Shown here: in pieces, positions 23,018 to 47,232 of the stretch
How the letters are laid out: every line of letters begins with the position of its first letter
Position numbering within the stretch: position 1 is the stretch's first letter
DNA from: an uncultured delta proteobacterium
GTDB taxonomy: Bacteria; Desulfobacterota; RBG-13-43-22
Reading direction: 5' to 3'
Assembly: GCA_963838485.1 (NCBI GenBank)
Contig: CAWIRY010000115.1
Coordinates: 74,162 to 138,161, forward strand
DNA length: 64,000 bases
Made by a program: the position numbers and the translations under genes
Notes under the pieces: generated by a model
Database searches by the model: none
Seen by the model: the letters and a program-made list of their open reading frames with translations, nothing else
What the model was told of the DNA's origin: nothing

Positions 23018-23095
23018 CAAAAACCCCACCCCCTTCTTGAGAAATGGTGTCTATTATCCTTCCGTCGGAACTCCTTTATAAAAGGGTTGTGAAAA
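23018..23095 (-). ncRNA. Copy of recurrent leader/terminator motif
   Basis: closely similar to 30699-30769; ends in hairpin + U-tract. Confidence 0.5.
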
Positions 23096-23427
23096 AGAAA
23101 CTTGGTTAATTTGCTGAAGATTTCCTCCTCTTTAATTACCATAAAGTCACTAATTCTTAAATCATTTTCATTGAATACCGTTTGAAAGATCTGTTTTGGT
23201 CCAGCATCGCACTGGATTTTCGTTAGAATACTTCAAGATGAAAGGGCTTCTGGTGTAATCTTTTACAGCCGTAGCCCAGTAACGACTGGCACAACCTTCG
23301 ATTTTGGAAAGAATGCCTCTGATCTCGGGATAGATCTCCCTGAAATGAACCTCCCTATCCCGGTCTTAGGATCAATTACATAAATTGTCAACCAGGTGTC
23401 GTTGACGATAACTAATTGAAACTTATA

Positions 23428-26400
23428 TCAACTTGCCATCTCAACAAATTGGTCAAGACATTCCAGCCAGACTATCATTGATTTCCACGCCTCATCTGCA
23501 TTGTTGAGTTTCAATTCGACATGCGCTACCCTTGTATTACGGAATTCGTTGACTTTCTCTAATTTGTAATAGAGGCTTTTCATTTTTGACCCTGAAAACA
23601 ATTTAGCCACGTCTTTCCATACGCCTGTTGCACCTAAGCCACCGTCTTTTGCATATCCTAAGCAAAAGAGTAATGTGCCTAGTTTCATTATAGAGCGCCC
23701 GAATACCAAATTATCTTTGAGGTAACGGCCATATTTTTCGAGCTGAATGCGATCTCTTGTTTTAAGCGTATCCAGATAGGGACTAAAATAATTTTCTCGA
23801 TCCTGCTGACTGGTAGGTATTTTAGGTGTAAGTTGCTTGTCAAGTATTCGAATAGCATAATCATCAAGCGGATGAAGCAACGGTTGAAAAGCATGTCCAA
23901 ACTCTGGCATTCCAGAACGGATAGCGTGATCCAGAAGAGTTATTGCCTGCCTCATTTGTCCTTCTACAGCAGTAGGAGCCTTCTGAATACCTGCTTCCCA
24001 AAGGACACGGGAAAACAACTCTTCGGCCTCCTTCTGAGCTGTTTCTTCGAAGAGCGGTAATTCCTGTTGGCCGGTTTTCGCCTCTTCTATCAATCCTCGA
24101 AGAGATGGTTCACAGGCCCTTGATAATTCTTCGATCGTTGATGCCGCACTCTGCTGAAACAGGTGATAAGGGATATATAAAAAGCGCCATTTAACCCTTC
24201 CCTTTGAACCGGCCTTACACCATTCAACGGCAGCCCGGACCTTTACGAGAACGAGATTGTCAACCTTGCCCTTAAGCTCTACGAGGTAATAACTGTTTTC
24301 CTTGCTGCGAATGAAGAAATCCGGGACATACAAGGCTCGATGTCCATCTGGCTTCATATAATCGATCATCAGTTTTTGTGGACCTGCATTCTTCGCAGAA
24401 GCGATAACGTCGGATGCATAATCACAGAAATCAACAAATGCCCTTTCAAATTCATTTTCGCAGGGGACCAGATTAAACATGGTTTTTTTTGCTTGGACAG
24501 CGGGCCTCTTGTCGTTACTGGTAGCCTGATAGGGTTTCCATAAGGATAAAATCTGCCCTTGGCTGATCCGCCGCCGCTCCTTTTTTCGGACGATTTTGTC
24601 TAGAATCAGGGGTGTGAAGGTGGCACGGATGTGTTCCATCACATCGATGTCGCGCATACGATGATCGACATCCCCGGCGTAAAGGTCTACTTCACGTTCA
24701 AAAAGGACCTTCGAGATGAATTCCTCAATCACGGGTGTTAAGATACTGTGTGGATTGCTGACATGGCAGGCTCTTCCCAATTCCTGTGCAAAATAACTCG
24801 CCGCTGACCATGCGTTACTTAGAAGACCTACGTCCACCTTCATCTTGGCGACAACTTCGTCAGTAAAAAGATGCCTCTCCTCATATTCAATAGATTCAGT
24901 TTTTATCTTACCAATCGGCAGGCGGTAAAAGCGTTTCTTTGTCTCGAAAAACTCTCTTACCTCATCAATGGACAACCCCTTTAATTCTGTGCTCATTTCC
25001 ACAGAATCCGAAATTAAAGGGATTTCAATTTCCAGATCCTTAACAGGCTTTTTCTCATGATCAACAAAAATGGTCACAGTTTGTTTGAATGCTTCACGAA
25101 TGGGCAGGTAAGCAATATCGAGACCTTCTTGGGCCAGTTCCTCTTCATATAATTTTCGGAAGGCGGGATGATGGACGACAGTGACTATTTCCGGAGTCTC
25201 GGCAAGTGGGAACATGCGCCTCAGTCCTCGTCCTAATGTCTGTTCAGGAAGGATGCCGGACTTTGCGGAATATGGACGCAAAGGAATGATGGTTGTAACG
25301 TTCTTGACATCCCAACCTTCGCGAAGCATCATGACGGAAACCACACAACGAAATTTACTGTCCTTTTTATCTAGTTCGCGGGACATCTCACGTAATTCCC
25401 GAAGGTCTTCCGGTTTCATGCCCGTTTCCTTTTCCACGAATTCCTTGACTTCACGGCCACCCCGGATGAAGGTCTTTATTTTTCCCTTCAAGCGGGTATG
25501 GATATTCAAAACCCGTCCTTTCAGAAGAGGAAACTGTTTACTGTCCAGATAGTCCGTGATTTCATTCGCTGCGTCTGCGTCTTCAGTCATCACAAAAAGG
25601 ATGGGTTTTCTGACCTTATTCAGTTCCTCATAAGTCTTTTCATAACGTTGATAACCAAGTTGAAGGTGCATATTATATCGCTGATGGGCGGGTGTTCTAT
25701 TATCTCCCCTGATGACCAACGCATCTGATTCTCCAATGACAGGAACCTTAACGATGCCAGCATCTACTGCTTCGCCAAGAGGAAAATCACAAATGATATG
25801 ATTAAAAAGATTACCGTCGTTGTATTTTGGTGTCGCAGAAAAATCCAATTGAAGCCGCACTCCCCGATTCCCCTTACTTAGGCTTTGACTATGCAAAGCA
25901 TTAATAGCTCTGTTCCAAGCAAGATCAGGATCATGGAGGTGATGAGCCTCATCATTCATAACCATGACGCAAGGATGGCTTGAAATTCTCTCTCGGAGAG
26001 CAGCGCCTGTGTCCAGTGCCTTAGCTTTCTTGACAGGAGGGCCGAAGATAGATGCCTTATCGTCATCTCCTTCGTCATTTTCATCACGTGATTCATAGAG
26101 GCGGTGAATGTTTGTCAGATAAATTGTGCCCCTTGTGCTTGAGCCACCGGGATTATCCTGTAGTATGACTTGCATTTGAAAGTCATTAACCCAATCTGTA
26201 GGCAGGAGGGGATCTTTGTAGAAAATTGAACAGTTCTCAAAATCATCTTTTAATCGTTCATAAACTGTCAAATTTGGTGCAATAATAACAAAATGCTGGG
26301 GCAGGTTCGAATCGGTTTCACGGAGCCGATGGAAATAACTCCATACGATTGCCAGACTCATTACTTTGGTTTTCCCACCTCCCGTTGCTATTTTACAACA

Positions 26401-26853
26401 ATCCTTTAGCCATCGATCGTCTTCAGGGTTGATGCCAAGGGCAAGATCGGCGATGCCCTCGCTGCCGAATTCAAACATAAGTTCCATTACATTGCTGATT
26501 CTGCGCATCTCGCACAAATAAATGATGGTTTCAATCGCTTCTCTCTGTGCCCAATGATACCGAAAGGCTAAAGATTCACCTTCGCCGTTTAATATCAAAT
26601 GTTCCGATTTGAACCAGTAATTAAGCAAGGATATTGAAGTTTCGCTAATACTCGCATAACCACCTCGTCGCCATCCATCGACTTCTGCTCGAATCGATCT
26701 TACCAATGCACATTTACTGGGGCGGCGGCCAGGTTCAATAATTGCCGATGCACCCGGTACCGAGTTAGGAAGACGATGCATAATCGGCTCTTCCCACGGC
26801 TTGAACAATGGTTCAAGAGCGGCTGCATTTTTTTCCGTGACCTCAAAAGCCAT
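23428..26853 (-). CDS. res: Type III restriction enzyme Res subunit
   Basis: ATGGGKT, DEAHH, LREGWDV, EQTLGRGLR, YVPDF..VELKG. Confidence 0.9.
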   Translation of the reverse strand: MAFEVTEKNAAALEPLFKPWEEPIMHRLPNSVPGASAIIEPGRRPSKCALVRSIRAEVDGWRRGGYASISETSISLLNYWFKSEHLILNGEGESLAFRYHWAQREAIETIIYLCEMRRISNVMELMFEFGSEGIADLALGINPEDDRWLKDCCKIATGGGKTKVMSLAIVWSYFHRLRETDSNLPQHFVIIAPNLTVYERLKDDFENCSIFYKDPLLPTDWVNDFQMQVILQDNPGGSSTRGTIYLTNIHRLYESRDENDEGDDDKASIFGPPVKKAKALDTGAALRERISSHPCVMVMNDEAHHLHDPDLAWNRAINALHSQSLSKGNRGVRLQLDFSATPKYNDGNLFNHIICDFPLGEAVDAGIVKVPVIGESDALVIRGDNRTPAHQRYNMHLQLGYQRYEKTYEELNKVRKPILFVMTEDADAANEITDYLDSKQFPLLKGRVLNIHTRLKGKIKTFIRGGREVKEFVEKETGMKPEDLRELREMSRELDKKDSKFRCVVSVMMLREGWDVKNVTTIIPLRPYSAKSGILPEQTLGRGLRRMFPLAETPEIVTVVHHPAFRKLYEEELAQEGLDIAYLPIREAFKQTVTIFVDHEKKPVKDLEIEIPLISDSVEMSTELKGLSIDEVREFFETKKRFYRLPIGKIKTESIEYEERHLFTDEVVAKMKVDVGLLSNAWSAASYFAQELGRACHVSNPHSILTPVIEEFISKVLFEREVDLYAGDVDHRMRDIDVMEHIRATFTPLILDKIVRKKERRRISQGQILSLWKPYQATSNDKRPAVQAKKTMFNLVPCENEFERAFVDFCDYASDVIASAKNAGPQKLMIDYMKPDGHRALYVPDFFIRSKENSYYLVELKGKVDNLVLVKVRAAVEWCKAGSKGRVKWRFLYIPYHLFQQSAASTIEELSRACEPSLRGLIEEAKTGQQELPLFEETAQKEAEELFSRVLWEAGIQKAPTAVEGQMRQAITLLDHAIRSGMPEFGHAFQPLLHPLDDYAIRILDKQLTPKIPTSQQDRENYFSPYLDTLKTRDRIQLEKYGRYLKDNLVFGRSIMKLGTLLFCLGYAKDGGLGATGVWKDVAKLFSGSKMKSLYYKLEKVNEFRNTRVAHVELKLNNADEAWKSMIVWLECLDQFVEMAS

Positions 26854-26855
26854 GA

Positions 26856-28922
26856 TTAAACCTCCACGTCGATAACTGTCGTGGTATCTACACCAAAAAC
26901 ATCAATCACCTTGACGCAAATCTTCTTATTGCCCTTATTCTTGTATTCCCAACCAATGTATGTTCTTTCTTTTAACGAGCGATCCTTTCTGGTTCGAAAA
27001 TCCTGCCAATGATGTTCAAATGGCTTGTTTGCGCTCCAGTCAAAATCAACAGCCCAGAAATCAATGAAATCAAAAGGTGATTTTACCGCGCGTTCCCTCA
27101 AGGCGGCCATTTCAGATTCTGGAGCTTCCGCCAACGCCGGGGAGAAACGATTCAATTTGACATCAATCTTCTTTCCCTTCTTGACAGCTTTTACCTCCAG
27201 GGCTCCAGCCTCAAAGAACTGGCATTCCCTCCGGTTCGGTTCCATGATTTCTCTTGGGATGTATTTCAACTTGATGTTCAGACCGCTTTCTGCCTCGATA
27301 GCCTGTTTCTTATGGGATAGTTCCATTTCAAATTCCCATGCAAGACAATGAAGCTCTCGTCCTCCGGCAGCACTCGCCGCTTCTGATATTGTGCGGAGTT
27401 CTTCAAAGGTAAAAATGCCATCAATATGATGCACGTGAACAAAAGCCCCGTGTTTTGTTCCGTGCAGAAGGGAATTTGATGATAACTGTAAAGGAGTTGC
27501 TTTATAGAATTGAAGAACAATTTGGCGATGTTCCGTATCGGCACCCTTGAGGCGCTCCATTTGCCACCATTGGCGTTCGTAACGACCAAGATTATAGACG
27601 TCGAAGGAGCGATAAGGCTTGCTATCTGCATGCAGCTCCCGCTGAACTTGAATGAGGCGTTTACGGCTAACGTGTATGGCATAACGACCTAAATCTACAC
27701 CTATCCAACGTCGGTCGAGTTTCTCGGCAACAGCCATTGTTGTACCAGAACCAGAAAAAAGGTCAGCAACGAGGGCGCCTTTGTCAGAGGATGCACGGAT
27801 AATGCGCTCTAAAAATGGCTCAGATTTCTGCGTCACATAAGCATTTGGGGCATTGTCGTAAGCATAGATATCAGACCAATCGGTATCGGCTGCGATTTCC
27901 TCTTTAGGTTCGACCCAGTAGTAACAGCGTGTTGCCCCTGGCTCGCGCTTGATAAATCTCTTCGATTTCCCAGTTTTTATCCAGTAATCGAAGAGGGTCA
28001 TCTTGTCAGAATACATATCTAGGTATTCTTGGTAGTTCTGCACTGCGAGTTCCGCTTTGTCTCTTGTCCAGCGCCACTGTCCATCCGCAAGATGTATTCC
28101 CAGCAGCGGATAACGTAATGTTGGACGGTCAGCATTATTCCAAAAATTGTTCCACTGTTCGTGATTTGATTCGGGTGCCTTTGTCAATGGAGCACGAAAT
28201 CGAGCAGATATATTCATTGAATACCATAGAACTGAGTCACAAGCGATATTCAAACGAGATACCGTGTCAAACTGATTCTGTAAGTTTTTTGTTTTTCTCT
28301 TCGCATAGATTTCATTCCTGAAATTATCACTTCCAAACACATCATCCATTAATAAGCGTAGGGATGAATTGACTCGATAATCACAATGCACATAAATGCT
28401 ACCTTTTTCACTAAGCAAATCTCGCATCATTGTAAGGCGTTCGTACATCATGTGCAGGTAGGAATCCGTACCTTTACCCCAAGTATCCCGATAAGCTACA
28501 GATTCTAGGATAGACTGCTCCTTCTGTACGGCTTCGCCTTCTTCCCCTAGTTGCACCTGCATGGTGAAATCAGCACCCACGTCAAAAGGAGGATCATTGT
28601 AAATCAAATCAACCTTGCCTCGGAACTGGTCCAACAAAGCGGCCATTGCCAGCTTATTGTCCCCCCAGATGAGAATGTTACGAAAATCATCTTGATGAGC
28701 CTTCATTGAATCAAATAACAAACCCTGGGCAATACTGCGGTCATGGGGCTCATCTATGGCTTCGATTCGTTGCAACGGTAAAGGGGTTGAGGGAAGTTTA
28801 ACGGGACGCCGGTTCCCATATTCATCGTATTTGCCTTCCCATACCAATCCAGTTTTCAATTTCGATAATGGGTGCGGATTTTCCGGACCCCACGTATGAT
28901 TAGACATGTTTTTTTTATCCAT
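26856..28922 (-). CDS. mod: Type III R-M DNA methyltransferase Mod subunit
   Basis: DPPF motif IV precedes DLFSGSGTT motif I (beta class); directly upstream of res. Confidence 0.92.
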   Translation of the reverse strand: MDKKNMSNHTWGPENPHPLSKLKTGLVWEGKYDEYGNRRPVKLPSTPLPLQRIEAIDEPHDRSIAQGLLFDSMKAHQDDFRNILIWGDNKLAMAALLDQFRGKVDLIYNDPPFDVGADFTMQVQLGEEGEAVQKEQSILESVAYRDTWGKGTDSYLHMMYERLTMMRDLLSEKGSIYVHCDYRVNSSLRLLMDDVFGSDNFRNEIYAKRKTKNLQNQFDTVSRLNIACDSVLWYSMNISARFRAPLTKAPESNHEQWNNFWNNADRPTLRYPLLGIHLADGQWRWTRDKAELAVQNYQEYLDMYSDKMTLFDYWIKTGKSKRFIKREPGATRCYYWVEPKEEIAADTDWSDIYAYDNAPNAYVTQKSEPFLERIIRASSDKGALVADLFSGSGTTMAVAEKLDRRWIGVDLGRYAIHVSRKRLIQVQRELHADSKPYRSFDVYNLGRYERQWWQMERLKGADTEHRQIVLQFYKATPLQLSSNSLLHGTKHGAFVHVHHIDGIFTFEELRTISEAASAAGGRELHCLAWEFEMELSHKKQAIEAESGLNIKLKYIPREIMEPNRRECQFFEAGALEVKAVKKGKKIDVKLNRFSPALAEAPESEMAALRERAVKSPFDFIDFWAVDFDWSANKPFEHHWQDFRTRKDRSLKERTYIGWEYKNKGNKKICVKVIDVFGVDTTTVIDVEV

Positions 28923-29149
28923 CAGTTAAACCTCATAGATTAAACATTTTTCGTTTATTTGAAAAGGATTGTAAATGTAAGTGGAGTCAGGCATAAATAA
29001 TTAAGTTTTGATACAAAGTGAAATTTTGATCACTTTATTTTATTCAGTTTTGTTTTCATCTCCACACCTTTAACCGCCATGGCGGCTCCTGTCGTACCAA
29101 ACCCTAATTCCCGTTGATCCCGTCTGATTTTTTTCGAATATCGCTGAAC

Positions 29150-29236
29150 AAAAAACCCTATCTCCTTCAGAAAATAGGGTCTTATTCAATACTTCATGGA
29201 CCAACCTTTCGGTTAAGGGTTGCCAGCATCAAGAAA
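29150..29236 (-). ncRNA. Copy of recurrent leader/terminator motif upstream of mod
   Basis: TTTCTT..CAACCCTT..ATGAAGTATTGA ATAAGA CCCTATTTTC-TGAA-GGAGATAGGG TTTTTT. Confidence 0.45.
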
Positions 29237-29883
29237 GCCTAACTTAAAATGAATAATTTAAACCATAACACATAGTTAAAGTCAATCCAAAAGAGAGACA
29301 GCCCGAAAAGAGTTCAAACACCTTATTTGACAACTTCCAAACTTCTAATCTTTTTTGGGGATTTCCCTTCAAATGCTTGGAAGTTTGGAAGTTCAAAAGT
29401 TCGACCAGAACCACCAGGACAGCAGTAAGATGAAAAACCCAATACAAAAAATAGTTTTTCCTATTTGTCATTATAGATAGTTACAAGGGTTCGGTGCGCC
29501 GACCTTTAACCAACCTTGGTCCATATTTTTGATTATCTATCCATATCTTCTTCTATTCCTATCCCCTGATTACCCTTGAATCCTTCCCAGGTTCGTTTTC
29601 TATCTTATCTGACCTTCTCTTAAATCTAATCTGCCTCTAATCCGATTCTAATGAATCTACGCTCCAGCTTCACCATCTAACATACTATATATATTAAATA
29701 ATACAAGAAAGTCCTAAGGGGCTATCCTGCCCCTTCCCTGGAGCAATCCATGGAATGGGAATCATTATTTCCCTTGAACCTTCTTTAATCCCCCTTCTGT
29801 TTTCCTATCCATACCGGCATTCCCCAATAGCACCCCTTTCATCCCCTTCATTCAATCAAATCCCTTAATAACGGAGGACCCCT

Positions 29884-30390
29884 ATGGAATCCAAAGACCC
29901 AGAGATTCGCCGGGAAAAGGTATTTGTATCCCCGGAAATGTCAGTAAAAGAAATATCAGAAAAATATGGTGTCTGCCCAAGCACAGCTAACCTTTCCCGA
30001 AAGAGAGGGTGGCTCATCAAGAATTACAGCAGAAAGCAGATCATCATTGATCGAGAACATTTTCACGGACCCAGTGCATATAGCATCGCCCGCCAGGTCT
30101 ATTTCAAAAATTTTTCTAATAATCCTGTTGCCCAGTCCATAAAAGAGGATCTGATTCAGGAAGCCGTTACCCTGATGTTCATGCAGAGTGGTAAGGTAAG
30201 AGAAGGCGCCTCTGAAAAATACAACGATAAATATGGATGGTGGTGGTGCGCCCATAATGCTCAACTTTCATACTTGAAAACTTGGATCAGACAGACCCGA
30301 TATGACGTAGAGCTTCAGGATGAAATCCACCCTTATATGACTTATGGAAACAGGAGATATTCGCCGGAGTTTGGCTGGATTCATTGTTGA
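29884..30390 (+). CDS. Hypothetical HTH protein with sigma-region-2-like segment
   Basis: MSVKEISEKYGVCPSTA; IKEDLIQEAVTLMF; RBS GGAGG. Confidence 0.6.
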   Translation: MESKDPEIRREKVFVSPEMSVKEISEKYGVCPSTANLSRKRGWLIKNYSRKQIIIDREHFHGPSAYSIARQVYFKNFSNNPVAQSIKEDLIQEAVTLMFMQSGKVREGASEKYNDKYGWWWCAHNAQLSYLKTWIRQTRYDVELQDEIHPYMTYGNRRYSPEFGWIHC

Positions 30391-30698
30391 TAAGGAAATG
30401 AGGGGAGGTTCAAGGGTTCCAGGGAGTCTTGGGGATGGGGAAATAAACCAGAGGGACAGCATGCACTGGATGGAAGGATAATTGAAGGGGGTATCTTTCC
30501 ACCTGGTGTGTGTTATCCCTCTGTCTCGGGAAGGGAAAATAATATTATTATGGTTTCCGTTTATCATGATTTTTTTTACTTGGCAAATTATCATATGGAC
30601 TGGATTTGAACCGGGACAGATAGGTTCATAAAATCCCTTGACTTTTTCCAGAAAGCAGGTAGATAATCCTATAAAAATTATAGAAATTTTCTTGTTGG

Positions 30699-30769
30699 TA
30701 ACCTTTAAACAGGGAGTTCCAATGGAAGAATAATAGATCCCATTTCTCAAGAGAGAAGTGGGTTTTTTT
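30699..30769 (+). ncRNA. Copy of recurrent leader/terminator motif downstream of TTGACT..GATAAT promoter-like sequence (30638-30667)
   Basis: AACCTTT..GGGAG TTCCAATGGAA GAATAATAGA CCCATTTCTC-AAGA-GAGAAGTGGG T7. Confidence 0.5.
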
Positions 30770-30806
30770 ATTCCGCAATATTAGAAATAGTAAGGCAGGG
30801 AATCCA

Positions 30807-31403
30807 ATGAAAAAATGTCCGTATTGCGCTGAAGAGATTCAGGAGGAAGCTATCAAATGTAAGCATTGTGGGGAATGGCTTCAAAGCGACAAATCGCATA
30901 TTAGGTTAGAATCACAGCCGGTAACTCTATCAAGTAGCCTGGGTAATAATGAACCTATATATCCAACGATTATCAGGAGGTACTTATCAACGTTTATTGA
31001 TGGCATGCTCATTCTTGGTGTATTCATTCTATCTTCCTACCTTTTCTCAGAGGATACAAATCTTGATAAGATATTACGGCTTTGGACGATCCTTGTTATG
31101 ATTTTTATATACGAACCTTTTTGCACCAGTAAACTTTGCACTCTGGGTCAAAAGCTCATAGGAATAAGAGTTAGAACAGTCTCAAAACTTGAAAGGATAT
31201 CTTTGGGTCAGGCATACATGAGAATAGTTGTCAAGGTGTTCCTCGGTTTTATTTCCTTCTTTTCGATAATTTTTTCAAAAAGAAGGCGTGCGATCCATGA
31301 TTTTGTCTCGGGTACGATAGTTGTGAAAGCTGAAAGCATTTTAGCTATTCCACTGATGCAGCCCACTGATTCTAGGGCATGCCGTCCACCTGCATTATGT
31401 TGA
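30807..31403 (+). CDS. RDD-family membrane protein with N-terminal zinc ribbon
   Basis: CPYCAEEIQ..AIKCKHCGE; RRYLSTFID, TLGQKLIGIRV, RRAIHDFVSGT. Confidence 0.85.
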   Translation: MKKCPYCAEEIQEEAIKCKHCGEWLQSDKSHIRLESQPVTLSSSLGNNEPIYPTIIRRYLSTFIDGMLILGVFILSSYLFSEDTNLDKILRLWTILVMIFIYEPFCTSKLCTLGQKLIGIRVRTVSKLERISLGQAYMRIVVKVFLGFISFFSIIFSKRRRAIHDFVSGTIVVKAESILAIPLMQPTDSRACRPPALC

Positions 31404-31437: not shown

Positions 31438-32183
31438 GTAGAGTAGGGAACTGGCGCCTGGCTGGAGCCGCTTTTGATCTTTTGGATGCACGCATCTACT
31501 AAGAACTATAACGGTCAGGGGTTTCCAGCTCCCCCTCGTCAAACCGTACGGTCGGTTTTCCCGAATACGGCTTTCCAATCATCTTCTTCCAAAGGCATTC
31601 GCTTTCGCTTGGCCTTCTGGTATATCTTCCACCGGAGTTTTCGGAACACACATGGAGTTTATAGCGTTGCCGCAATCTCCTTTCCTTCCCTCCTTCAGAA
31701 GCATGATGAAGGTATTGCCCCTTCCCTCTCTCAAGGTTATGTTGTCCTTGGGATGCAAGCGGTACTATTGGCAACTCCGACTCCCTCGCCGACCCGGTAA
31801 AATTTCGTTTCCTTATATTTACCAGTTGCTGCTTCCGCAGCATCGGCAAGGGTCTCCCGTGTTCATTGTCGTATGGCTTCCCCTGCGTGTCACCCCTGTT
31901 ACCCCGGAAGCTCATCTATCGGTTATGGTAGTTACTGTTAGGATAGATGCACCGGTCTTCCCCTGTGTAGGAGAGGGTCGACAACTCCATTGTAATTTTC
32001 GAGGCTACATCCAGGTTCGCTTGCGCTGCAACCCGCAGATTTGCCCAGCTTCCTTAAGAAGCCTTTGTCAGGGAACTTAGTGCTTCAGGTTACCCTTAAC
32101 ACCTCCCTCAAGCTACGTGGGCGAACTGCCGAACTCCCACAGTCGGACTTTAACCGACCAGTCATACGTTTTACACGGCATAC
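31438..32183 (-). mobile_element. Group II intron with internally deleted RT/maturase ORF
   Basis: 5' GTATG, domain V GAAAGCCGTATTCGGGAAAACCGACCGTACGGTTTG, 3' CCCTACTCTAC; EBS1 loop CCTACA matches exon TGTAGG. Confidence 0.85.
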
Positions 32184-38855: not shown

Positions 38856-38895
38856 GTCTATCTCACGGCCCCAGCCTTGGGGCGGAATCGCTTTC

Positions 38896-39019
38896 TTAGC
38901 GCTTTATCAGGGCCACCAGGATTTCGGCAAGGACCAGCAGAAACACTCCTAACGCGCCCGCCGCCGATAACCACAATCAGCATTTCCTTGGGCAAACTAT
39001 AATCTTCCTGATTATCCAT
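38896..39019 (-). CDS. Small single-TM protein (~40 aa, one-base frameshift)
   Basis: MDNQEDYSLPKEMLIVVI/..GALGVFLLVLAEILVALIKR* after removing one G. Confidence 0.45.
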
Positions 39020-39061
39020 TTTGAGACTCGGCCTCATTTAATTATTTTTTGTCCGAAATTT

Positions 39062-39775
39062 TCAAAATACTCGGCTTCTCTGGTATATTCTGGAAGTCAA
39101 CTTGCCGGTTATAACTTCAAAGTCTGGTTTCTCTCGAAGACGATGGACCCAACCTGTTTTAAAGTCAGGCCACCAATATAAGCGATATGTCCCCGGGGGA
39201 ACTTTTTCAAAAACGTACCTTCCCTTAGCATCCGTTTGCGTATTCAGTGAAATCCCTTGATCTGTTTCATAAGATTCTTTATCGTCTCTCGAAAGCATTT
39301 TTTTAACAGAAGCCAGTGAAACACCGGTATAGTTTTCGAGTTCGATCTTAACCTTTCCGTTGACCAAAGGCTTCCCCTGCCAGAGAATAACACCCTGCAC
39401 GCTCCCCAATTCTTCCTGTAAAAGTTGTTCGTGGAGGTCCCCTTTTTTGGCAGATTTAGGCGGGGTAGGTGATGAACTACCAGTCCCCTTGCTCTCTTCC
39501 TGCATTATTTCGGGTCGGGGAAGCGGGATCGGTGAGAGTCCGGTCTGCTTGGGTTCGGCTTGCTTTTTCTCGAGACGTTCGATCCTTTTTTCAAGCTGTT
39601 CAAGTTTCTCTAATATTAGTTGTGTGTCCGATTTCTGAGCTCCTTTATCTTTTAAACCAATCTCATCTCCAAGGCAGTAGGTCGGAGACAACCACGCCGT
39701 CATCAAAACGACCAGCCCCATCAGACTCATGAGTCGTCCGGCACCTTTGCGGATGATCGTTCCCGACATCTTCAT
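39062..39775 (-). CDS. Exported coiled-coil + carboxypeptidase-regulatory-like domain protein
   Basis: signal peptide, LEQLEKRIERLEK, TDAKGRYVFEKVPPGTY. Confidence 0.7.
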   Translation of the reverse strand: MKMSGTIIRKGAGRLMSLMGLVVLMTAWLSPTYCLGDEIGLKDKGAQKSDTQLILEKLEQLEKRIERLEKKQAEPKQTGLSPIPLPRPEIMQEESKGTGSSSPTPPKSAKKGDLHEQLLQEELGSVQGVILWQGKPLVNGKVKIELENYTGVSLASVKKMLSRDDKESYETDQGISLNTQTDAKGRYVFEKVPPGTYRLYWWPDFKTGWVHRLREKPDFEVITGKLTSRIYQRSRVF

Positions 39776-39784
39776 ATCCTTATC

Positions 39785-40438
39785 TTAGCGTTCCTTTAAT
39801 TTGTCCCGTTCGAAATCTACAGTAACAGTCTTCCCCTCCTGCACGGTTACTTCCTTGGAGGTCTCCTTGAGCTTCTCATGCCAGACCTTCAGCTTGTAGG
39901 TCCCCGGGGGTACGTTTTTGATCTCATATTTCCCGGTATTGTCAGTTAGGACAAAATAGGGATTTTGTAAGACGATAACATAACCCAGCATCTCGGGGTG
40001 AACATTACAGAGCAGAGGAACCTCGCCAAGGTTATTAAAGGTCACGGTTTTTTTGACACCTGAGCCGTAAAGGCCGAGGTTAAAGCGAGTGGCCGCGCCT
40101 GGAGGGGTGAAGACATTGTGAGCGACCGTGTTATCGTTGGTGAAGTCAACGGTAGTCCCTTTTACGACGGGTAAAACATGGGGGTCAAAAGCCAGGCCTT
40201 TCTGGCTCATAAAAGAATTCTTTTTAGGGGGGGGAAAATCACCTTTCACCTGATCCACATAGACCACGGCCGGGTACCGCTTGACCCAGGGTGTATTGAC
40301 TACCCCTTTGATTATCCCTCCTGCCTGACGGCCTTTGGTTTCCTGGGCCCGGATCGGCAGGACTGTCAAAAAAACCGACAGGAACAAGATAACGGTAATA
40401 CATAAATAAACTCGACTTTTTTTGAAATAGTTGTCCAT
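39785..40438 (-). CDS. Cupredoxin (type-1 copper) + carboxypeptidase-regulatory-like domain protein
   Basis: HNVF...CNVHPEM ligand set; signal peptide. Confidence 0.8.
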   Translation of the reverse strand: MDNYFKKSRVYLCITVILFLSVFLTVLPIRAQETKGRQAGGIIKGVVNTPWVKRYPAVVYVDQVKGDFPPPKKNSFMSQKGLAFDPHVLPVVKGTTVDFTNDNTVAHNVFTPPGAATRFNLGLYGSGVKKTVTFNNLGEVPLLCNVHPEMLGYVIVLQNPYFVLTDNTGKYEIKNVPPGTYKLKVWHEKLKETSKEVTVQEGKTVTVDFERDKLKER

Positions 40439-40526
40439 GGTTTCCCCTCTCGTTAAACCTAATCTTTAAGATTCAGTGTCACCCGGAGGTATTTTTAAAC
40501 TTCATCGGGATGGACCCTTGGACCGG

Positions 40527-41891
40527 TTAAAAAGCAAAATCGAGCTGGAAGGACAGCATGTCGTCAGCCGACTTATCCTGGCCGGCGGCCTCCCGCGGTT
40601 GGTTAATCGTATAATGCATATATTCAACATTGAGCTTTATGTTGGCCCTTATCAAGAAAGCCAGTCCACCGATTATTCGGGCCATATTTTGATCGCCGAC
40701 GTTGTCTTCGGTCAGAGACTCATAGCGGGCATAAGGGATCAACCAGGGAAATACAAAATAGTGCCCCTCGATGAACCAGAGATTTTGCGTGGTGTTCGTG
40801 CTTGATGGTGTTTGGTAAAAAATCGAATATTTCTGCATTCCAAAATAATAAAATGGACTTTTTGTCTCCTCCGCGGTCGAAGTAGTATTCGCCACATTCC
40901 CGGTTTCCCTGATATATCCCGTGCCCAGGGAAAAGTCTTTGTAGTTCAAGCGAAAGTCTCCTCCAAACCGATCAGCCTGGTAGGCATTGACGCCGGTATA
41001 GGCCCGGTAGCCGAAGAGGCCGAAAAGAATCGAGTCGTCCCGCCAGTAACCGGACGGTGAGGTGTTGATCCCCCCCGCCTCAGATTTCGATCCCGAACCG
41101 TCGAAGCCCATCCCGCCGATTTTAAAAGCCAGCCCGCCGTAATAATCCTTGGCGCTGTTGTCAGAATTGGATTGTACTATACCGGCATAGTAGCGCGAAC
41201 GACTGCCGAATCCCTCTACCTGGAAACCGGGTTGAGGCTGCAGGTTGAGCACATCTTGATAGAGGTAATCGTTTATGGTAAAATTATTTTCATCCCTGGA
41301 ATTGGGTAAGGCGATCGATTGCCGGCCCACATTTCCGGCTTTAATGTTCAGATGGTTTTTGCCGAGGAGACTACTGCAAAGGTTCTGCCACATCAGCCAA
41401 ACCAGTCCATTGGTGTTGGTAGTCCCGGCTTCGCTGGTAAAGGCCAGATTCGTGAAAAAGGAGAAGTCCTTCCCTAAGTTACCCGCCGCAAGCAGGTCTA
41501 TCTCTCCTGGGAAGTTGAAGTCGGTATTGTTGGTAGTGGTTCCATTAGCGCTACCGGTATTGACATTCACGCCGCCGGTGGCCCGAATTGAAAGAGGAGG
41601 CATCCCGGGGATGTCGGAGGGCCAGAGAGAATTGGGAAATACTTTTTTGTAGGGCTCGGCCCCCATGCTGACCGGCTGATCCTTGACATAGAGTTCATCG
41701 GCATCAGGCAACTTATAACCGTTCAATCTGAAGGCTTCCCCTAAGGCGGATAGTTTCGGAAAGACGGTGTGGCAGGTCGTACAGGTGGTTTTGTATTTCC
41801 TGGCAAACGCAGGAATAGCCAATGCCTCTTTAGGGTAATGTGCAACAAGAAAGACAGCCAGAAAGATGCTTCCTAATACCATCCTTTTCAT
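40527..41891 (-). CDS. Cyc2-like monoheme cytochrome-porin fusion
   Basis: signal peptide then AIPAFARKY...CTTCH..FPKL..LGEAFRLNGY; beta-strand-rich C-terminus ending QLDFAF. Confidence 0.8.
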   Translation of the reverse strand: MKRMVLGSIFLAVFLVAHYPKEALAIPAFARKYKTTCTTCHTVFPKLSALGEAFRLNGYKLPDADELYVKDQPVSMGAEPYKKVFPNSLWPSDIPGMPPLSIRATGGVNVNTGSANGTTTNNTDFNFPGEIDLLAAGNLGKDFSFFTNLAFTSEAGTTNTNGLVWLMWQNLCSSLLGKNHLNIKAGNVGRQSIALPNSRDENNFTINDYLYQDVLNLQPQPGFQVEGFGSRSRYYAGIVQSNSDNSAKDYYGGLAFKIGGMGFDGSGSKSEAGGINTSPSGYWRDDSILFGLFGYRAYTGVNAYQADRFGGDFRLNYKDFSLGTGYIRETGNVANTTSTAEETKSPFYYFGMQKYSIFYQTPSSTNTTQNLWFIEGHYFVFPWLIPYARYESLTEDNVGDQNMARIIGGLAFLIRANIKLNVEYMHYTINQPREAAGQDKSADDMLSFQLDFAF

Positions 41892-42380
41892 TGTCCCCTC
41901 CTTCATTTACGGTAAGAAGCTTAAGGCCTATTAATTTGCCCATCACTCCTCCGTCCCTAGGGTTTTTGTACTCTGATTAATGCCTTATCCCTTAAGTATC
42001 TCCTTCTTAGTTTTGGTTAAAATTATTCTTTCTCTCTTTAATTGCCGATAGGCACGGTTCTTTCTAAATTATATATCCCGTATTTAATCCAAATCCTCTT
42101 TTAATTCGTAAAATATTTTACAGTAGAAAAGGATAGAGTCAAGAAAAAAAATAATGGATTCATTGTTGTGGAGTGCGAGCATTAGAGCAACCACAAAGAT
42201 TCCAATAAATATGCCTTTAAATATACCACATATCACGAGAAGAAAGGGACTCATAATTTTCTCCCCAAGCAGCAACGTTTCTATTTGTTTCGGCTTAATA
42301 AACCAGATCGGAAACCCGCCTGATCAGTTCCTCCATGGAAAAGGGTTTCTGAAGGGGATTAACTTGGTACTTGTTTTTTT

Positions 42381-43781
42381 GGTTCTTTAGCAAAATTTAT
42401 GGGTAATAAATGGCCCTATAAAAAGGGGTTAACGTTAGACTAAGATAAAAGTGCATCCCGCTCTCAAATCTGGCAAGATGGAAGTTGTGCGAAAACAAAC
42501 CATCGCCAGAGGAGAAACGGGATGCAGATCAAATATATCCTTAATCAGGTTCAAAAGCATAGTGGTTTTGTATATGGTCAAGTTCGATTAAGGAGAAGAC
42601 GAACTCAAATGACCCTGGAGATTGAAATTCGTCCTCGTCAGAACAGCCGCCCGATTTGTTCGGGCTGTGAGAAGAAAGGCCCCGGCTATGACACCTTGCC
42701 GGTCCGATGGTTTCAGTTTGTACCTCTTTGGGGCATAGCTGTTTTTTTCCTTTACGGCCTCCGGCGGGTCGATTGCCCTCGTTGCGGTGTCAAGGTAGAG
42801 CGGGTTCCCTGGGCGCAAGGGAAGAACCATATGACCATCCCCTTTTCCTGGTTCCTGGCTCGCTGGGCTAAGCGACTGAGTTGGAAAGAAACGGCCGAGG
42901 TCTTTCAGACCACCTGGGATAATGTATTTCGCTCGGTTAAGATGGCTGTCGCCTGGGGACTGGCCCATCGAGATCTTGAGAATGTTACGGCTATCGGCAT
43001 TGATGAGATCTTCTGGAAAAAGGGTCCTAAATACCTGACGATGGTCTATCAAATCGATATCGGGTGCCGACGATTACTCTGGATAGGTCAGGAGCGGACC
43101 CAGAAAACCTTACGGGCCTTCTTTGAAGACTTTGGCCCCGAGGCCACGGCCCGGCTTCGCTTCATCTGCAGTGATATGTGGAAACCCTATCTGCGGATAG
43201 TGGCCGAGTTAGCAGGTCAGGCGGTTCATATCTTGGACCGATTTCATATTATGAGTCAAGTGGGTAAAGCCATCGACAAAGTAAGAGCCCAAGAAGCCAA
43301 GCAGCTTAAGGCGAAAGGAGAACAGCCAGTCCTGACTAATAGTCGTTGGTGTTTACTGAAACGGCCAGAAAATTTAACCGACAAACAAACGGTAAAGCTG
43401 AAGGAACTGTTATCCTGCAATCTGAAAACGGTTCGCGCCTACCTCCTCAAGGAGGATCTGCAGCGCTTTTGGAGCTATACCTCCCCGAAATGGGCTGGTC
43501 GATTTCTGGACGAATGGTGTCAAAGAACGACGCGCTCCCGAATCGACCCGATGAAGAAAGTGGCCAAGATGTTACGCAATCACTGGGAGCTTTTGCTCAA
43601 TTGGTTCCGGGTCAAAGATCGAATCGCATTAGGTGCTGTAGAGGGCTTTAACAACAAAGCGAAATTGACCACAAAAAAAGCCTATGGCTTTCGTAGTTAC
43701 GAGGTGATTAAAATCGCTTTATATCACACACTTGGTGATCTGCCCCAGCAAACGGGCTCCCATAAATTTTGCTAATGAACC
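42381..43781 (+). mobile_element. ISL3-family insertion sequence
   Basis: IRs GGTTCTTTAGCAAAATTTATGGG / CCCATAAATTTTGCTAATGAACC; flanks GTTTTTTT / GTTTTTTC. Confidence 0.92.
42522..43775 (+). CDS. ISL3 transposase
   Basis: CSGC/CPRC zinc finger, IGIDE, SDMW, DRFH, EGFNNKAK..AYGFR. Confidence 0.93.
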   Translation: MQIKYILNQVQKHSGFVYGQVRLRRRRTQMTLEIEIRPRQNSRPICSGCEKKGPGYDTLPVRWFQFVPLWGIAVFFLYGLRRVDCPRCGVKVERVPWAQGKNHMTIPFSWFLARWAKRLSWKETAEVFQTTWDNVFRSVKMAVAWGLAHRDLENVTAIGIDEIFWKKGPKYLTMVYQIDIGCRRLLWIGQERTQKTLRAFFEDFGPEATARLRFICSDMWKPYLRIVAELAGQAVHILDRFHIMSQVGKAIDKVRAQEAKQLKAKGEQPVLTNSRWCLLKRPENLTDKQTVKLKELLSCNLKTVRAYLLKEDLQRFWSYTSPKWAGRFLDEWCQRTTRSRIDPMKKVAKMLRNHWELLLNWFRVKDRIALGAVEGFNNKAKLTTKKAYGFRSYEVIKIALYHTLGDLPQQTGSHKFC

Positions 43782-44297
43782 GTTTTTTCTTCTTCCAGGT
43801 GGGAGTAAAACTGTTCCAAGTTATCGCTCATATAGATCGTCTTTACCGTTACCAACCTTAAAAAAAATAGATATCGTTTGTACTAGATAGTTTTCATCCG
43901 GAAATCCAAGATTCCGGATAGCTTTCAGCAGTCAGCGGTCAGCATTTAGCCCAACTCTCGGATGATAAAGGATTTTGCTGAAAGCTAAAAGCTGATTGCT
44001 TAATGCTCCATCCGGAAGAGGATCGTTTCCGGATGGATACTAGATAGGTAGATAAAAAATGGGAATCCCCGCAATTATTTTTTTAATAATAATTAAGCTA
44101 TTTGGTGCTAATTTAATCTTTGACGAAGCCCTCCGGAAGAAGTTACAATAAATCCCATAGATTCGGACCATTAAACGGTAGACCAACTGGGTCTCTACCA
44201 GGGAACAGATTATTTTGGAAAAAATAAGGCCCGAATGATATAGCAGATCATGTTTTTCAAAGAAAAATCTGTTAAACCATAGGTCGGACTTTCAAGG

Positions 44298-44972
44298 ATG
44301 CCCATTATGAGAAAGTTTTTTTATTTTTTAACTTTATCAATCCTGCTTTTAACCCTTTCTTGTGGGGGTGGAGGGTCTTCGAGTGGGGGTGGGAGTCAAA
44401 GCCCTGGTTCCGGCTGGCCAAGCGGAGACTATAATTATCTTAATCAGCATAATGCCAGTTTTAATAATGGTATTATCATTCGCTGGCAAACGCCAATTCT
44501 TGTTAATACTAATGGGATATCGGGGGCTGAGGATTCGATACGGCAATGGGGTTTGCCCTTTACATTCGTTAATTACAATCCCGCTGAGGGAATTACTCTT
44601 AATATTGGCAACCCTGGTCCAGGTGCTTGTGGAGTTACTTATTCCCAATGGAATAGCGCAAATGGCAGAATGGTTTCCGCAAACATCATTATCAGTTCAA
44701 ACCTACAGGGCTGTGTGGGGACAATAACTCACGAGACGGGACATGCCATTGGTTTTGAAAACCATACTACTGACGGAGGTTTAATGGATGCTGACGGAGG
44801 CAATGGTCAGATTACCTCTCCAGTACGGAACATGATTAACTTATTGTATTCTCTCCCAATAGGAACAAATATTACGCCGGTGCTGTCTATGAATAGTCAA
44901 TCTCTTTTACCCCGTTTGGAAACAAGACAGGTTCCCGATGGAGGTAGAATTGTTACCAGGGTGATTCAATGA
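44298..44972 (+). CDS. Matrixin-like zinc metalloprotease lipoprotein
   Basis: LTLSC lipobox-like, HETGHAIGFENH, LM Met-turn. Confidence 0.75.
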   Translation: MPIMRKFFYFLTLSILLLTLSCGGGGSSSGGGSQSPGSGWPSGDYNYLNQHNASFNNGIIIRWQTPILVNTNGISGAEDSIRQWGLPFTFVNYNPAEGITLNIGNPGPGACGVTYSQWNSANGRMVSANIIISSNLQGCVGTITHETGHAIGFENHTTDGGLMDADGGNGQITSPVRNMINLLYSLPIGTNITPVLSMNSQSLLPRLETRQVPDGGRIVTRVIQ

Positions 44973-45403
44973 AAACTACTAGCTTCTTCATAGGATTACT
45001 GGTGATCTTAGGAATGGTAACGGATTGTCTGCCAGAGAATAACCCCCATCCTAATATAGTTATGGGAATAACAGATCTTCAGTGCGACGATGTATGGGAA
45101 GGCGTTCTTAGAATTTTAAAAACTCAAAAAATCCCTCTCTTGGTGGTAGACAAAAAGGCAGAGTATATTGAAACAGGGTCTGTCTTGACCATTCCATTAG
45201 AAGGTGATCTCTTCCAGAAAATGGAGGAACAATACGGCATTGAGATTAAATGTAAAGAACCTCTGGTCACCCAAATAACCTGCCAGATTAAGGTCAGGGG
45301 GTTAACCAATGACAATAACTGGATCGTAGTAAAGGATGTCTTAAAATATGAAATGCGTTTTTTAGATAATCTGAAATTCAATCTCCTTCATTTCTCCCAT
45401 TAG
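44969..45403 (+). CDS. Exported hypothetical protein
   Basis: ATGA overlap with previous gene, N-terminal hydrophobic segment. Confidence 0.6.
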   Translation: MKTTSFFIGLLVILGMVTDCLPENNPHPNIVMGITDLQCDDVWEGVLRILKTQKIPLLVVDKKAEYIETGSVLTIPLEGDLFQKMEEQYGIEIKCKEPLVTQITCQIKVRGLTNDNNWIVVKDVLKYEMRFLDNLKFNLLHFSH

Positions 45404-45956
45404 TTAGTGTCCATCCGGAAATGGGCATTTTTAAGCTTCTGTTTGGGAGTGGAGGGCATCAATTCATTGTGAAAAGTGAATTATCCTACTCAATTTAGAT
45501 GGAATTTATAATTTTTTCGTTATCAAACAAAAAATTGACTTTTTTATGAAACACTACTCCTGTCATCAGCTATCCGCAGCAGTCAGGAAGTTAAGCTTTG
45601 GCCAATTAGCGTTTGGCCAAGAGAGACAGACTGTAAGAGACTACCGCACTCCACACGTATTGCTTAAAAAGATGAACACAAAAAGATGTAGGGTCTTCTG
45701 GAGAAAATTGGACTTTGTAGATCTGGACTTACAAACTGATTACTGTTTTTAATGCAGTACAAAGAGTCAAAATTTAAAAACAATAGTATAGTCATGCATC
45801 TCGACCTTACCGGGAGGCCCTCTTTATGGCCGATCCGGTGCCTCGCATGAAGTAAAAATAGGGACAGCACACGGTTTACTTTGACAAAGAATTGATGGCC
45901 GATTAACAAATAGGCGCTGTCCCTGTTTCCCCATGAGGTTTGATTTCCCGGTGGCT

Positions 45957-46868
45957 TCAAACTCTTTTGGGTGATTGACCCAGAGGTTTGGTTTGTATTA
46001 TTAGCATCGGTTTCGTGGTCTGCTTTATAACCCGGTCGGTCACCGAACCTAATAAAGCTCGACGCCAGCCGGTTAGCCCGTGTGTGGCTATGACGATCAG
46101 ATCCGCATCGTTCTTTTCGGCCAAATCAACGATTTGAACGGACGGCTGCCCGCACTTGACCAAGTGTCGAACCTGGACCTTGGCGGAAATCATCCTTTCG
46201 GATACGGCTTCCAGATTCTTTACGGCGGCCGCTTCCATAGTGGAGACCGATCCCGGAACAAACGGCGGCGACTCCACCACGTGGGCCACCAGCAGCTCAG
46301 CCGAATAATCCCCGGCCAGACTGGCAGCTGATTTGAGGGCTTCGTCTGCCGATTCGCTGAAATCCGTAGGACAGAGAATTTTTCTAATCTTCATAAAGGC
46401 CCTCTCTGCTGATGAACGAGCTGGTGGTTTGGGTTGAATAACCCATACCGGCCGCGTACTCATTTTGATGATCTGCGCTGTCACCGATCCTAAAAGAGCT
46501 TGACGCCAGCCGGTCTGGCCGTAAGGCGCAATCACGATCAAATCCGTCTCATATTCTTCGGCCCACTCCAAGATCTGGATGGCCGGTGAGCCGATTTTGA
46601 CCAGGGCCCTGGCTTTAATCTTGACGGGGATCCCCTTCGTAACCAGTTGTTCCAACCGTTCTTTAGCATCTTCTTCCTTTTGCCGGCAACGCTCCTGGAA
46701 TTGAGCAACCGGGTCGTGACCACCTCCCAGGAGGAGCGGCAGCGAATTTACCACGTGGGCCACCAGCAGCTCAGCCGAATACTCTCCGGCCAGATCGGTA
46801 GCCGATAGCAAGGCTTCGTAGGCCTGATCGCTAAAATCGGTGGGACATAAAATTTTTTTAATATTCAA
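45957..46868 (-). CDS. Tandem universal stress protein
   Basis: two KILCPTDFS...DLIVIA..G.TG....LLGSV domains. Confidence 0.9.
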   Translation of the reverse strand: MNIKKILCPTDFSDQAYEALLSATDLAGEYSAELLVAHVVNSLPLLLGGGHDPVAQFQERCRQKEEDAKERLEQLVTKGIPVKIKARALVKIGSPAIQILEWAEEYETDLIVIAPYGQTGWRQALLGSVTAQIIKMSTRPVWVIQPKPPARSSAERAFMKIRKILCPTDFSESADEALKSAASLAGDYSAELLVAHVVESPPFVPGSVSTMEAAAVKNLEAVSERMISAKVQVRHLVKCGQPSVQIVDLAEKNDADLIVIATHGLTGWRRALLGSVTDRVIKQTTKPMLIIQTKPLGQSPKRV

Positions 46869-46932
46869 ATTAAACCCTCCTTTTTAACGCGTCTAATCTG
46901 TTCCCCCCCATCGCGTATCATGGCTCCTGGCC

Positions 46933-47130
46933 TTATGTAAAGTCCATGGCCAAGTATGTTTTTGAATCACTTCCAGCCCGGCGATGCTGAATGGAGCCAG
47001 TTATCACCTCTTTATAAGCGCTAAGGGTCCCGATGGTCCCTTCCTCATCCTCCCCCATGAGACGGCTGTAACTCTTGACATCGGCGCTGAGGATGGCAGC
47101 GAGCTTGCGCTTGATCTGATCCGGAATCAT
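46933..47130 (-). pseudogene. Class III adenylate cyclase N-terminal fragment
   Basis: KRKLAAILSADVKSYSRLMGEDEEGT then truncates. Confidence 0.75.
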
Positions 47131-47160
47131 AAATTTTTCTCCTTAAGCCAAGGCGGAAAT

Positions 47161-47232
47161 AAAAAACCCCGCCTCCTGAATGAGAACGGGGTTTCCTAAA
47201 TTCCTCCATGTGCTTGCCTCCCTTTAAGGTAA
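47161..47232 (-). ncRNA. Copy of recurrent leader/terminator motif
   Basis: TACCTTAAAGGGAGG..ATGGAGGAA..CCCCGTTCTC..GAGGCGGGG TTTTTT. Confidence 0.45.

Follow-up and report, generated by a model that had tools for sequence, protein, structure and literature searches.

The trpL and pyrL leaders are ribosome-mediated leader-peptide transcription attenuators, the GEMM-I cyclic di-GMP riboswitches of Geobacter are multi-copy riboswitch leaders, and the Correia/NEMIS, ERIC and REP/REPIN elements, 100–200 nt long and present in dozens of intergenic copies, can carry promoters or terminators. Here we analyse a repeated non-coding leader found in four copies in a 64-kb stretch of the genome of an uncultured delta proteobacterium (assembly GCA_963838485.1, contig CAWIRY010000115.1, positions 74,162 to 138,161 of the forward strand; the whole of this stretch is called the window below). 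Each copy combines a predicted promoter, a hairpin that holds a Shine–Dalgarno (SD) sequence and an AUG, and a predicted intrinsic terminator. We interpret the copies as a lineage-specific portable promoter-attenuator module standing before unrelated and largely accessory genes, a reading to which the sequence comparisons give, in our estimate, an even chance of being right.

Ribosome-mediated attenuation is also reported for bmrB-bmrCD (PMC4191407) and for ARE-ABCF leaders such as msrD (10.1101/2021.11.29.470318). Like leader-peptide attenuators, the family described here places a short open reading frame (ORF), equipped with an SD, near the promoter and after it an intrinsic terminator, all ahead of a gene. 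It differs from them in having no conserved peptide, regulatory codons or antiterminator, and in that its ribosome-binding site is buried in a hairpin. Furthermore, leader-peptide attenuators have one leader per operon, whereas this family reuses one design before more than 40 unrelated gene families. With the GEMM-I leaders it shares the occurrence of many structured leaders with a terminator per genome, before signalling or unknown genes, in Desulfobacterota-type bacteria. This likeness is contextual: the family has no Rfam match and no evident aptamer core common to its subfamilies, and its repeat includes the promoter and the spacers.

Putative mobile promoters (PMPs) are recognised by at least 80% identity over at least 50 nt upstream of non-homologous genes (Nijveen, Matus-Garcia & van Passel 2012, PMC3575422). 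PMP families mostly have just two members, and such elements can carry RNA regulatory motifs (PMC3575422). The family resembles PMPs as homologous non-coding sequence before non-homologous genes, but it has dozens of members per genome, is found order-wide and has a defined predicted content, namely promoter, structured leader with SD and AUG, and terminator. Correia/NEMIS, ERIC and REP/REPIN are named as regulatory intergenic repeats in the same paper (PMC3575422). Our units are like them in size, copy number, intergenic site and promoter/terminator content, and unlike them in strict co-orientation, in promoter-to-terminator order and in that the A and C copies have no terminal inverted repeats (subfamilies A to D are introduced below). 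We found no description of the family in the literature; the 2012 Nucleic Acids Research paper on PMPs and its supplements lay outside that search and could list related elements.

Results

A large family of leaders in one lineage

The genome of the window comprises 5.04 Mb in 212 contigs and is 93.8% complete. An nhmmer profile made from the four window copies gave 54 matches in it at E < 1e-3, and the iterated profile gave 71, of which 66 are non-overlapping at E < 1e-5; a covariance model of the family gave 54 matches at E ≤ 1e-3. The size of the family is far above chance, and the 'at least four copies' counted in a previous sequence-only reading of the window have become dozens. Run over the whole window with filters off, the covariance model returned exactly four matches, at 30684-30771(+), 29148-29237(-), 47159-47252(-) and 23016-23104(-), with 78, 72.2, 68.5 and 60 bits, respectively, thereby recovering each of the four strong copies of that reading. 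The remainder of the window reached at most 22 bits, mostly on the reverse strand of terminators. Two 'weaker matches' that had been suggested at ~16130-16200(-) and ~41980-42010(-) had neither a covariance-model match at E ≤ 10 nor an nhmmer match and are not members. Subfamilies A, B, C and D were distinguished; C and D were handled jointly as C/D.

The covariance model matched all 20 other genomes of the same taxonomic family, drawn from four genera, with 2–61 matches per genome and 19 of the 20 matched at E ≤ 1e-5, and matched none of 20 genomes across 20 other families of the phylum. Together with the genome of the window, these 21 genomes hold roughly 480 matches. Among the genomes compared, the order consists of this taxonomic family alone. 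An exact-pattern scan of 185,579 species genomes yielded 54 loci, nearly all in metagenome-assembled genomes (MAGs) labelled Thermodesulfobacteriota or delta proteobacterium. Pattern matches in Verrucomicrobia and Lachnospiraceae were not matched by the covariance model and were set aside as chance, and viral contigs had no match to two family patterns. These sequence searches indicate that the family is restricted to one lineage.

With Rfam 15 at gathering thresholds over the whole window, the copies matched no family; a group II intron and two tRNAs passed. Over positions 22900-31000 at E ≤ 10, the matches that overlapped a copy were at chance level only (the best were TtnuHACA12, 25.9 bits against a threshold of 80, and PyrR, 24 against 54).

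Unit boundaries and a predicted promoter

Conservation extends from ~70–90 nt before the first helix of the hairpin (P1) to just after the U-tract, which gives a repeated unit of ~170–185 nt. In all three subfamilies (A, B and C/D) its upstream part holds a TTGACT(TT) box and a -10-like box. The latter is GATAAT or GGAAAT in subfamily A, ~18 nt after the -35 box, and TATAAT or TAGAAT in B; in C/D it is an AT-rich box between the arms of an inverted repeat. The sequence-only reading had noted an upstream box before two of the window copies: the box is present, but the number was too low, since all four follow (T/G)TGACTTT. Genome-wide, TTGACTTT was counted 368 times compared with ~155 expected, and 37 of its 118 sites outside crude ORF calls precede a leader. 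Each unit is thus predicted to carry a sigma-70-like promoter, separated from the hairpin by a 5′ tail of 15–35 nt.

Further sequence elements were observed at the promoters and at the unit edges. In C/D promoters (e.g. 29246-29275(-) in the window and loci L018, L025, L027 and L035 elsewhere) a (G)ATGG...CCAT(C) inverted repeat flanks the -10 box, with changes that preserve its symmetry; it could be a repressor operator or a 5′ RNA hairpin. A GGAAT-N4-ATTCC-type palindrome, called terminator-like by the scan, lies directly before the -35 box at 47316-47334(-) and in other B-type units, where it could shield the unit from transcription arriving from upstream or be bound by a factor. Just past the U-tract, units of different subfamilies share TTC(A/C)GC(G/A)ATATTnGAAA (29125-29147(-), 30772-30792(+), and contig C97 near 26417), a candidate for a second -10-like box or for a binding site.

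Hairpin, terminator and start site

In the folds, the CU-rich 5′ strand of P1 pairs with (U)GRARG, that is, with the last base of the AUG and one or two codons after it, P2 differs among subfamilies, and the 3′ strand of P3 is the SD (AAGGAG, GGGAGG or AAAGG). The hairpin is followed by an A-rich linker and a terminator with U6-7, whose sequence is conserved and not its pairing alone (its helix is 94.8% paired). The order of parts proposed from the window, running from a CU-rich 5′ strand over a purine-rich SD-like patch, a start-like codon and a linker to a hairpin and a U-tract, is readily visible in the sequence.

RNAalifold gave no consensus structure for a plain MAFFT alignment of 47 copies. 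The structure tested was derived by hand from single-sequence folds and imposed on the alignments, with partners slid as the control; a scan of column pairs in the MAFFT alignment was uninformative, because low-complexity columns pair with everything. In the MAFFT alignment, 83.8% of cells were paired compared with at most 67% after sliding. The corresponding values were 91.1% and at most 69% for 63 distinct copies from other genomes, and 89.1% and at most 66.1% for 93 distinct copies selected by score alone. In these 93 copies, 14 of the 21 pairs were changed on both sides, bearing out the earlier remark that substitutions keep the hairpin paired, and the covariation score of 0.297 (0.246 shuffled) was reached in none of 500 shuffles.

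The aligned start triplet is ATG in 81 of the 93 distinct copies, and the G residues of the SD are kept in 86/93 and 93/93. The T of the ATG is retained in 35 of the 38 cells whose P1 partner cannot pair with T, so pairing does not account for its conservation. In nearly all full copies 6–11 nt separate the end of the SD from the ATG, and in most copies the terminator stem starts 14–19 nt after the ATG. As judged from the alignments, SD and AUG are conserved beyond pairing needs and stand at a fixed short distance before the terminator.

The mini-ORFs read previously in the window (ATG GAA GAA TAA; ATG AAG TAT TGA; ACG GAA GGA TAA; ATG GAG GAA...) are correct. Across subfamily A, five of the nine copies with ATG at the conserved site encode MEE followed by a stop, and the rest are open. 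The mini-ORFs of B and C/D mostly have 18–54 codons and run through the terminator, in a reading frame that differs by subfamily; some in C/D end after 2–3 codons.

Orientation and distance to the next gene

The next gene is co-oriented with the unit for 61 of the 66 copies in this genome, while the upstream gene is on the same strand for 44 and on the opposite strand for 22. This combination of downstream co-orientation with a mixed upstream side indicates that the unit belongs to the gene after it and not to the one before. In 11 other genomes, taken by score order, the first ORF was co-oriented in 37 of 40 copies. The downstream proteins form 46 similarity clusters among 61, in agreement with the co-orientation with unrelated genes that had been described for the window.

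Median distances from the unit end to the ORF start are 29 nt for B, 75 nt for A, 110 nt for C/D and 83 nt in the relatives; gaps of 12–30 nt occur in B, and 10 of the relatives' 40 copies have a gap of at most 31 nt. Gaps are thus often below 35 nt and leave no room for another promoter, so that the downstream gene would need read-through. It follows from these distances that the genes after B copies, at least, are predicted to be made only by reading through the terminator, which would make the module a transcription attenuator.

Mosaic loci and portability

In all fetched loci, blocks of homology stop within a few nt of the unit edges. In some locus pairs the homology takes in the upstream region and the leader and leaves out the gene; in others it takes in leader and gene and leaves out the promoter. 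At a dienelactone hydrolase (DLH) locus compared between two genomes, ~1 kb of homology, made up of the leader, the gene and only some of the promoter, lies within unrelated flanks. Identity of at least 80% over at least 50 nt before dissimilar proteins was found for 108 unit pairs, which include 41 of the 47 full units, and on these sequence comparisons the family belongs among the PMPs.

The genes themselves are patchily distributed. The DLH gene was found in 3 of 20 related genomes, with the leader kept only at the 93%-identical orthologue, and a sulfate-symporter gene after another copy was found in none of 20 at E ≤ 1e-80. Judging by these and the other downstream sequences, the genes served are unrelated, largely accessory and partly strain-specific.

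When the four window copies were tested for terminal inverted repeats, the three A and C copies had none, only internal hairpins, and the B copy had a weak A/T-rich pair of 11 nt. An association with transposases was not seen: one of 61 downstream ORFs is a DDE transposase. Integron attC sites were considered and, without a core-site test, set aside, as the copies do not form a single co-oriented array and have U-tracts at their ends.

Downstream genes and defence

Pfam matches were obtained for 47 of 61 downstream ORFs. With PADLOC at E ≤ 1e-10, 21 of 60 downstream proteins matched a defence family, among them three type I methylases and one type III methylase, Cas3g, Cas7g, two HmaA/DrmD-like helicases, PycC-like cyclases, a ThsA-like SIR2 protein, AbiU, SoFic, PDC-S01 and PDC-S05; some matches, such as those of a trypsin-like protease and a DndA/SspA-like desulfurase, are at the domain level only. 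When copies were typed as C/D or A/B by the CCATGAAG motif, and only those before a co-oriented ORF were counted, a defence match followed 15 of 20 of C/D type compared with 6 of 40 of A/B type, counts that stand without a genome-wide baseline. An enrichment in defence genes is accordingly our judgement.

The downstream genes in the relatives encode PAS, histidine-kinase, GGDEF and HD-GYP signalling proteins and cyclases; hydrolases, two TIR proteins, a HigB-like toxin and a DruA-DDE fusion were also seen there, and many of the ORFs matched no family.

On contig C112 (74108-77058; loci L064, L025 and L059) three co-oriented units stand in a cassette-like arrangement, one for each gene of a defence island. 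These genes encode a PDC-S01 ATPase, an ORF6N/PDC-S05 protein and an HmaA-like helicase with GIY-YIG.

The four copies in the window and their neighbours

Coordinates of the window copies are collected in Table 1. The genes that follow them are those claimed by the sequence-only reading, i.e. an rpoZ-like gene, a type III mod methylase, an RDD protein and an N-terminal cyclase fragment. Full-length paralogues of this cyclase after other B copies carry Guanylate_cyc (Pfam).

Table 1. Leader units of the window, their predicted parts and the genes after them (R-M, restriction-modification)
Feature	Position	Strand	Evidence or remark
Unit 1, subfamily A	23012-23150	-	-35-like GTGACT at 23145-23150; covariance-model match, 60 bits
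Unit 1, hairpin SD AAAGGAG	23071-23077	-	fold
Unit 1, start-like ACG, then GAA GGA TAA TAG	23063-23065	-	sequence
Unit 1, terminator stem	23026-23047	-	terminator scan; U-tract to 23012
Gene after unit 1: rpoZ-like paralogue	22350-22679	-	RNA_pol_Rpb6 domain; ~330 nt past terminator
Unit 2, subfamily C	29149-29285	-	-35 TTGACT at 29280-29285; covariance-model match, 72 bits
Unit 2, hairpin with SD-like GAAAGG; ATG (ATG AAG TAT TGA)	ATG 29195-29197	-	sequence, fold
Unit 2, terminator and U-tract	29149-29181	-	
After unit 2: type III R-M mod	26856-28922	-	Pfam N6_N4_Mtase; PADLOC MTase_III, 4.7e-292
After unit 2: res-like helicase ORF	23428-26853	-	assigned from position and sequence motifs only
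Unit 3, subfamily A	30638-30771	+	covariance-model match, 78 bits
Unit 3, predicted promoter: TTGACT, 18-nt spacer, GATAAT	30638-30643, 30662-30667	+	10/12 matches
Unit 3, hairpin SD GGGAG; ATG (ATG GAA GAA TAA TAG)	SD 30712-30716; ATG 30722-30724	+	
Unit 3, terminator stem and U7	stem 30739-30762	+	10-bp stem, terminator scan
Gene after unit 3: zinc-ribbon and RDD protein	30807-31403	+	PF06271, PF13248; begins 37 nt past U-tract
Unit 4, subfamily B	47161-47315	-	-35 TTGACT at 47310-47315; covariance-model match, 68.5 bits
Unit 4, SD GGGAGG; ATG, ORF open through terminator	SD 47217-47222; ATG 47207-47209	-	
Unit 4, terminator and U-tract	47161-47193	-	
After unit 4: 65-codon N-terminal remnant, adenylate/guanylate-cyclase family	46933-47130	-	ATG 30 nt past U-tract

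The genome holds two rpoZ-like genes, that of the window and one at C97:21088-21306. The window copy, which has a repeat-rich C-terminal tail and adjoins the type III R-M genes, is the only one of the two with a leader, and it resembles an accessory omega-subunit paralogue. Immediately behind the RDD gene, RNA domains of a group II intron were found at 31438-32160(-) (RF02003, 89.9 bits; RF00029, 43.3 bits); the intron is overlapped by short ORFs only and may therefore lack an intact maturase. A near-perfect hairpin of ~30 bp at 29330-29394, the source of a spurious plant microRNA match, lies ~100 nt upstream of the unit 2 promoter, within a 464-nt stretch that is 86% shared with one other locus (C205).

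Discussion

From the window alone, the copies had been taken for an unrecognised attenuator, cis-regulatory RNA or small RNA (sRNA) family. Our analysis supports this view, in that the copies match no Rfam family, are oriented non-randomly and show covariation. It also extends it: the unit has its own predicted promoter, occurs in dozens of copies across an order and appears portable at mosaic junctions before accessory genes.

The module would consist, in order, of a sigma-70-type promoter, a 5′ tail, an irregular hairpin (P1–P3), an A-rich linker and a strong intrinsic terminator. Termination would be the default, and the hairpin that buries SD and AUG would keep the module in its 'off' state. 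As the switch we tentatively propose ribosome loading on the buried SD/AUG, a suggestion that arises from the conserved sequence features and that we would sooner doubt than defend. A ribosome that initiates at the AUG, and then either stops a few codons on or translates further, would cover the 5′ arm of the terminator; the hairpin would set the ease of its entry. Toeprinting places the edge of an initiating ribosome on mRNA at about +15 to +17. Given where the terminator starts, such a ribosome would lie against or over the base of the terminator stem, and one to three codons further on it would mask the CCCC arm needed for termination. This scheme would fit the MEE-stop copies as well as those whose ORF runs through the terminator. 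The module would spread as a 'mobile promoter' via recombination at its edges, and newly acquired genes would thereby come under one common control.

A bolder version is that this uncultured order of Thermodesulfobacteriota uses the promoter and a ribosome-gated terminator as a plug-in cassette that puts many immune systems and signalling proteins under one translation-state control; we regard this as quite unlikely. The systems concerned would be type I/III R-M, CRISPR I-U cas3/cas7, Dnd/Ssp-like systems, Hma/DISARM-like helicases, Pycsar-like cyclases, SIR2 and TIR, and the terminator would be blocked, for example, by ribosomes that stall on a 2–4-codon mini-ORF when phages attack or toxins act.

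A number of observations weigh against the promoter-attenuator interpretation. Promoter, termination and read-through are all predicted from sequence. The genomes are related MAGs of an uncultured order, so that counts are not independent samples, and the gene calls are crude longest-ORF calls. The alignments of 63 and 93 copies were fitted to the covariance model and lean to its structure, and kin sequences in them overstate independence. Five of the 66 copies here and three of the 40 in relatives are not co-oriented with the next ORF, and the median gaps of A and C/D leave space for a second promoter. Twelve of the 93 copies have no ATG at the aligned start (AGG in three, ATA, ACG and GGG in two each, TTG and AAG in one each, and a gap in one). 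Only SD and AUG are kept in the mini-ORF, a refinement of the sequence-only reading; its stop, frame, peptide and length, which ranges from one to more than 50 codons, are not conserved. In folds made without the 3′ arm of the terminator, no consistent antiterminator appeared and the 5′ arm had no consistent partner; some B copies alone can pair GAGGAA with UUUCUC there. DLH homologues at 77% and 73% identity, and a 60% paralogue, have no leader, and at the rpoZ loci of 12 same-genus genomes the sole nearby leader, in one genome, points the opposite way; from these two loci it follows that the leader is not kept at orthologous loci. Finally, two complete units, first one of C/D type and then one of A type, stand in tandem at 3450-3544 and 3602-3695 of locus L020 (contig C150), before a Cas3g-like helicase fragment.

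Three other explanations compete with this interpretation. The ~100–130-nt terminated transcript may itself be a trans-acting product, in which case the units would be stand-alone sRNA genes with the subfamily 5′ tails as seeds, and the genes after them would have their own promoters or simply tolerate leak-through. This would suit the self-contained layout of each unit from promoter to terminator, the conservation of the 5′ tails within subfamilies, the A/U-rich stretch before the terminator hairpin and U-tail, the gaps that often exceed 75 nt in A and C/D, the existence of tandem and divergent unit pairs, and the 5 of the 66 copies that face a gene on the opposite strand. Yet the co-orientation (61/66 and 37/40) is strong, the 12–30-nt gaps in B give no space for a promoter, and the most conserved unpaired positions are SD and AUG, for which a trans-acting sRNA has no need; moreover, neither Hfq (PF17209) nor CsrA was found in the 93.8%-complete genome, and the controls of the Hfq search responded. 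We consider such sRNA genes an unlikely explanation. CsrA binding was set aside as well, because C/D copies have no GGA motifs (by eye) and csrA was not found.

Alternatively, the 5′ hairpin could bind a small molecule, e.g. a second messenger, or a lineage-specific antiterminator protein, and so decide whether the terminator forms. The hairpin-then-terminator layout is that of such a switch, many copies precede signalling genes (PAS, GGDEF, HD-GYP, histidine kinases, cyclases), every subfamily shows a GCAAC motif and an ACC-containing apical loop, and the terminator is conserved in sequence besides pairing. However, P1 and SD/AUG are shared while P2, P3 and the internal loops differ among A, B and C/D, with no common binding core evident. 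The failure of RNAalifold to find a consensus on the sequence alignment, the lack of a conserved antiterminator and the absence of any Rfam family at threshold point the same way, and promoter and spacers are conserved too, which resembles recent copying more than an old aptamer. A ligand- or protein-dependent switch therefore seems rather improbable to us. We hold it very unlikely that the units are a selfish or neutral dispersed repeat, spread by recombination or in the manner of miniature inverted-repeat transposable elements, whose likeness to promoters and terminators is incidental and which has no regulated function. Copy numbers of 2–61 across related genomes, mosaic junctions where homology stops at the unit edges, absence of the unit at orthologous loci, and decayed and partial copies are all expected of such a repeat. 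It would not explain an orientation this far from random, the pairing changes on both sides, or an SD and AUG conserved beyond what pairing needs, nor does it sit well with the absence of a transposase association or with unit ends at which terminal inverted repeats are missing from A and C copies and only weak and A/T-rich in the B copy.

If the promoter-attenuator module is a working attenuator, it would be among the largest cis-regulatory leader families in any single genome, and one that moves with its own promoter. Recombination behind a standard cassette would then suffice for the lineage to place horizontally acquired genes under common control. Being short and self-contained, the module could be tested in a heterologous host despite the lack of a cultured member of the lineage, and it might find use as a compact regulatory part. 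The C/D subfamily stands almost exclusively before defence genes, and this context would allow a direct test of whether several unrelated immune systems share an RNA-level input. To our knowledge, the known shared regulators of defence systems are proteins; should the proposed control of defence genes by translation state hold true, the family would provide an RNA-level common regulator of defence islands.

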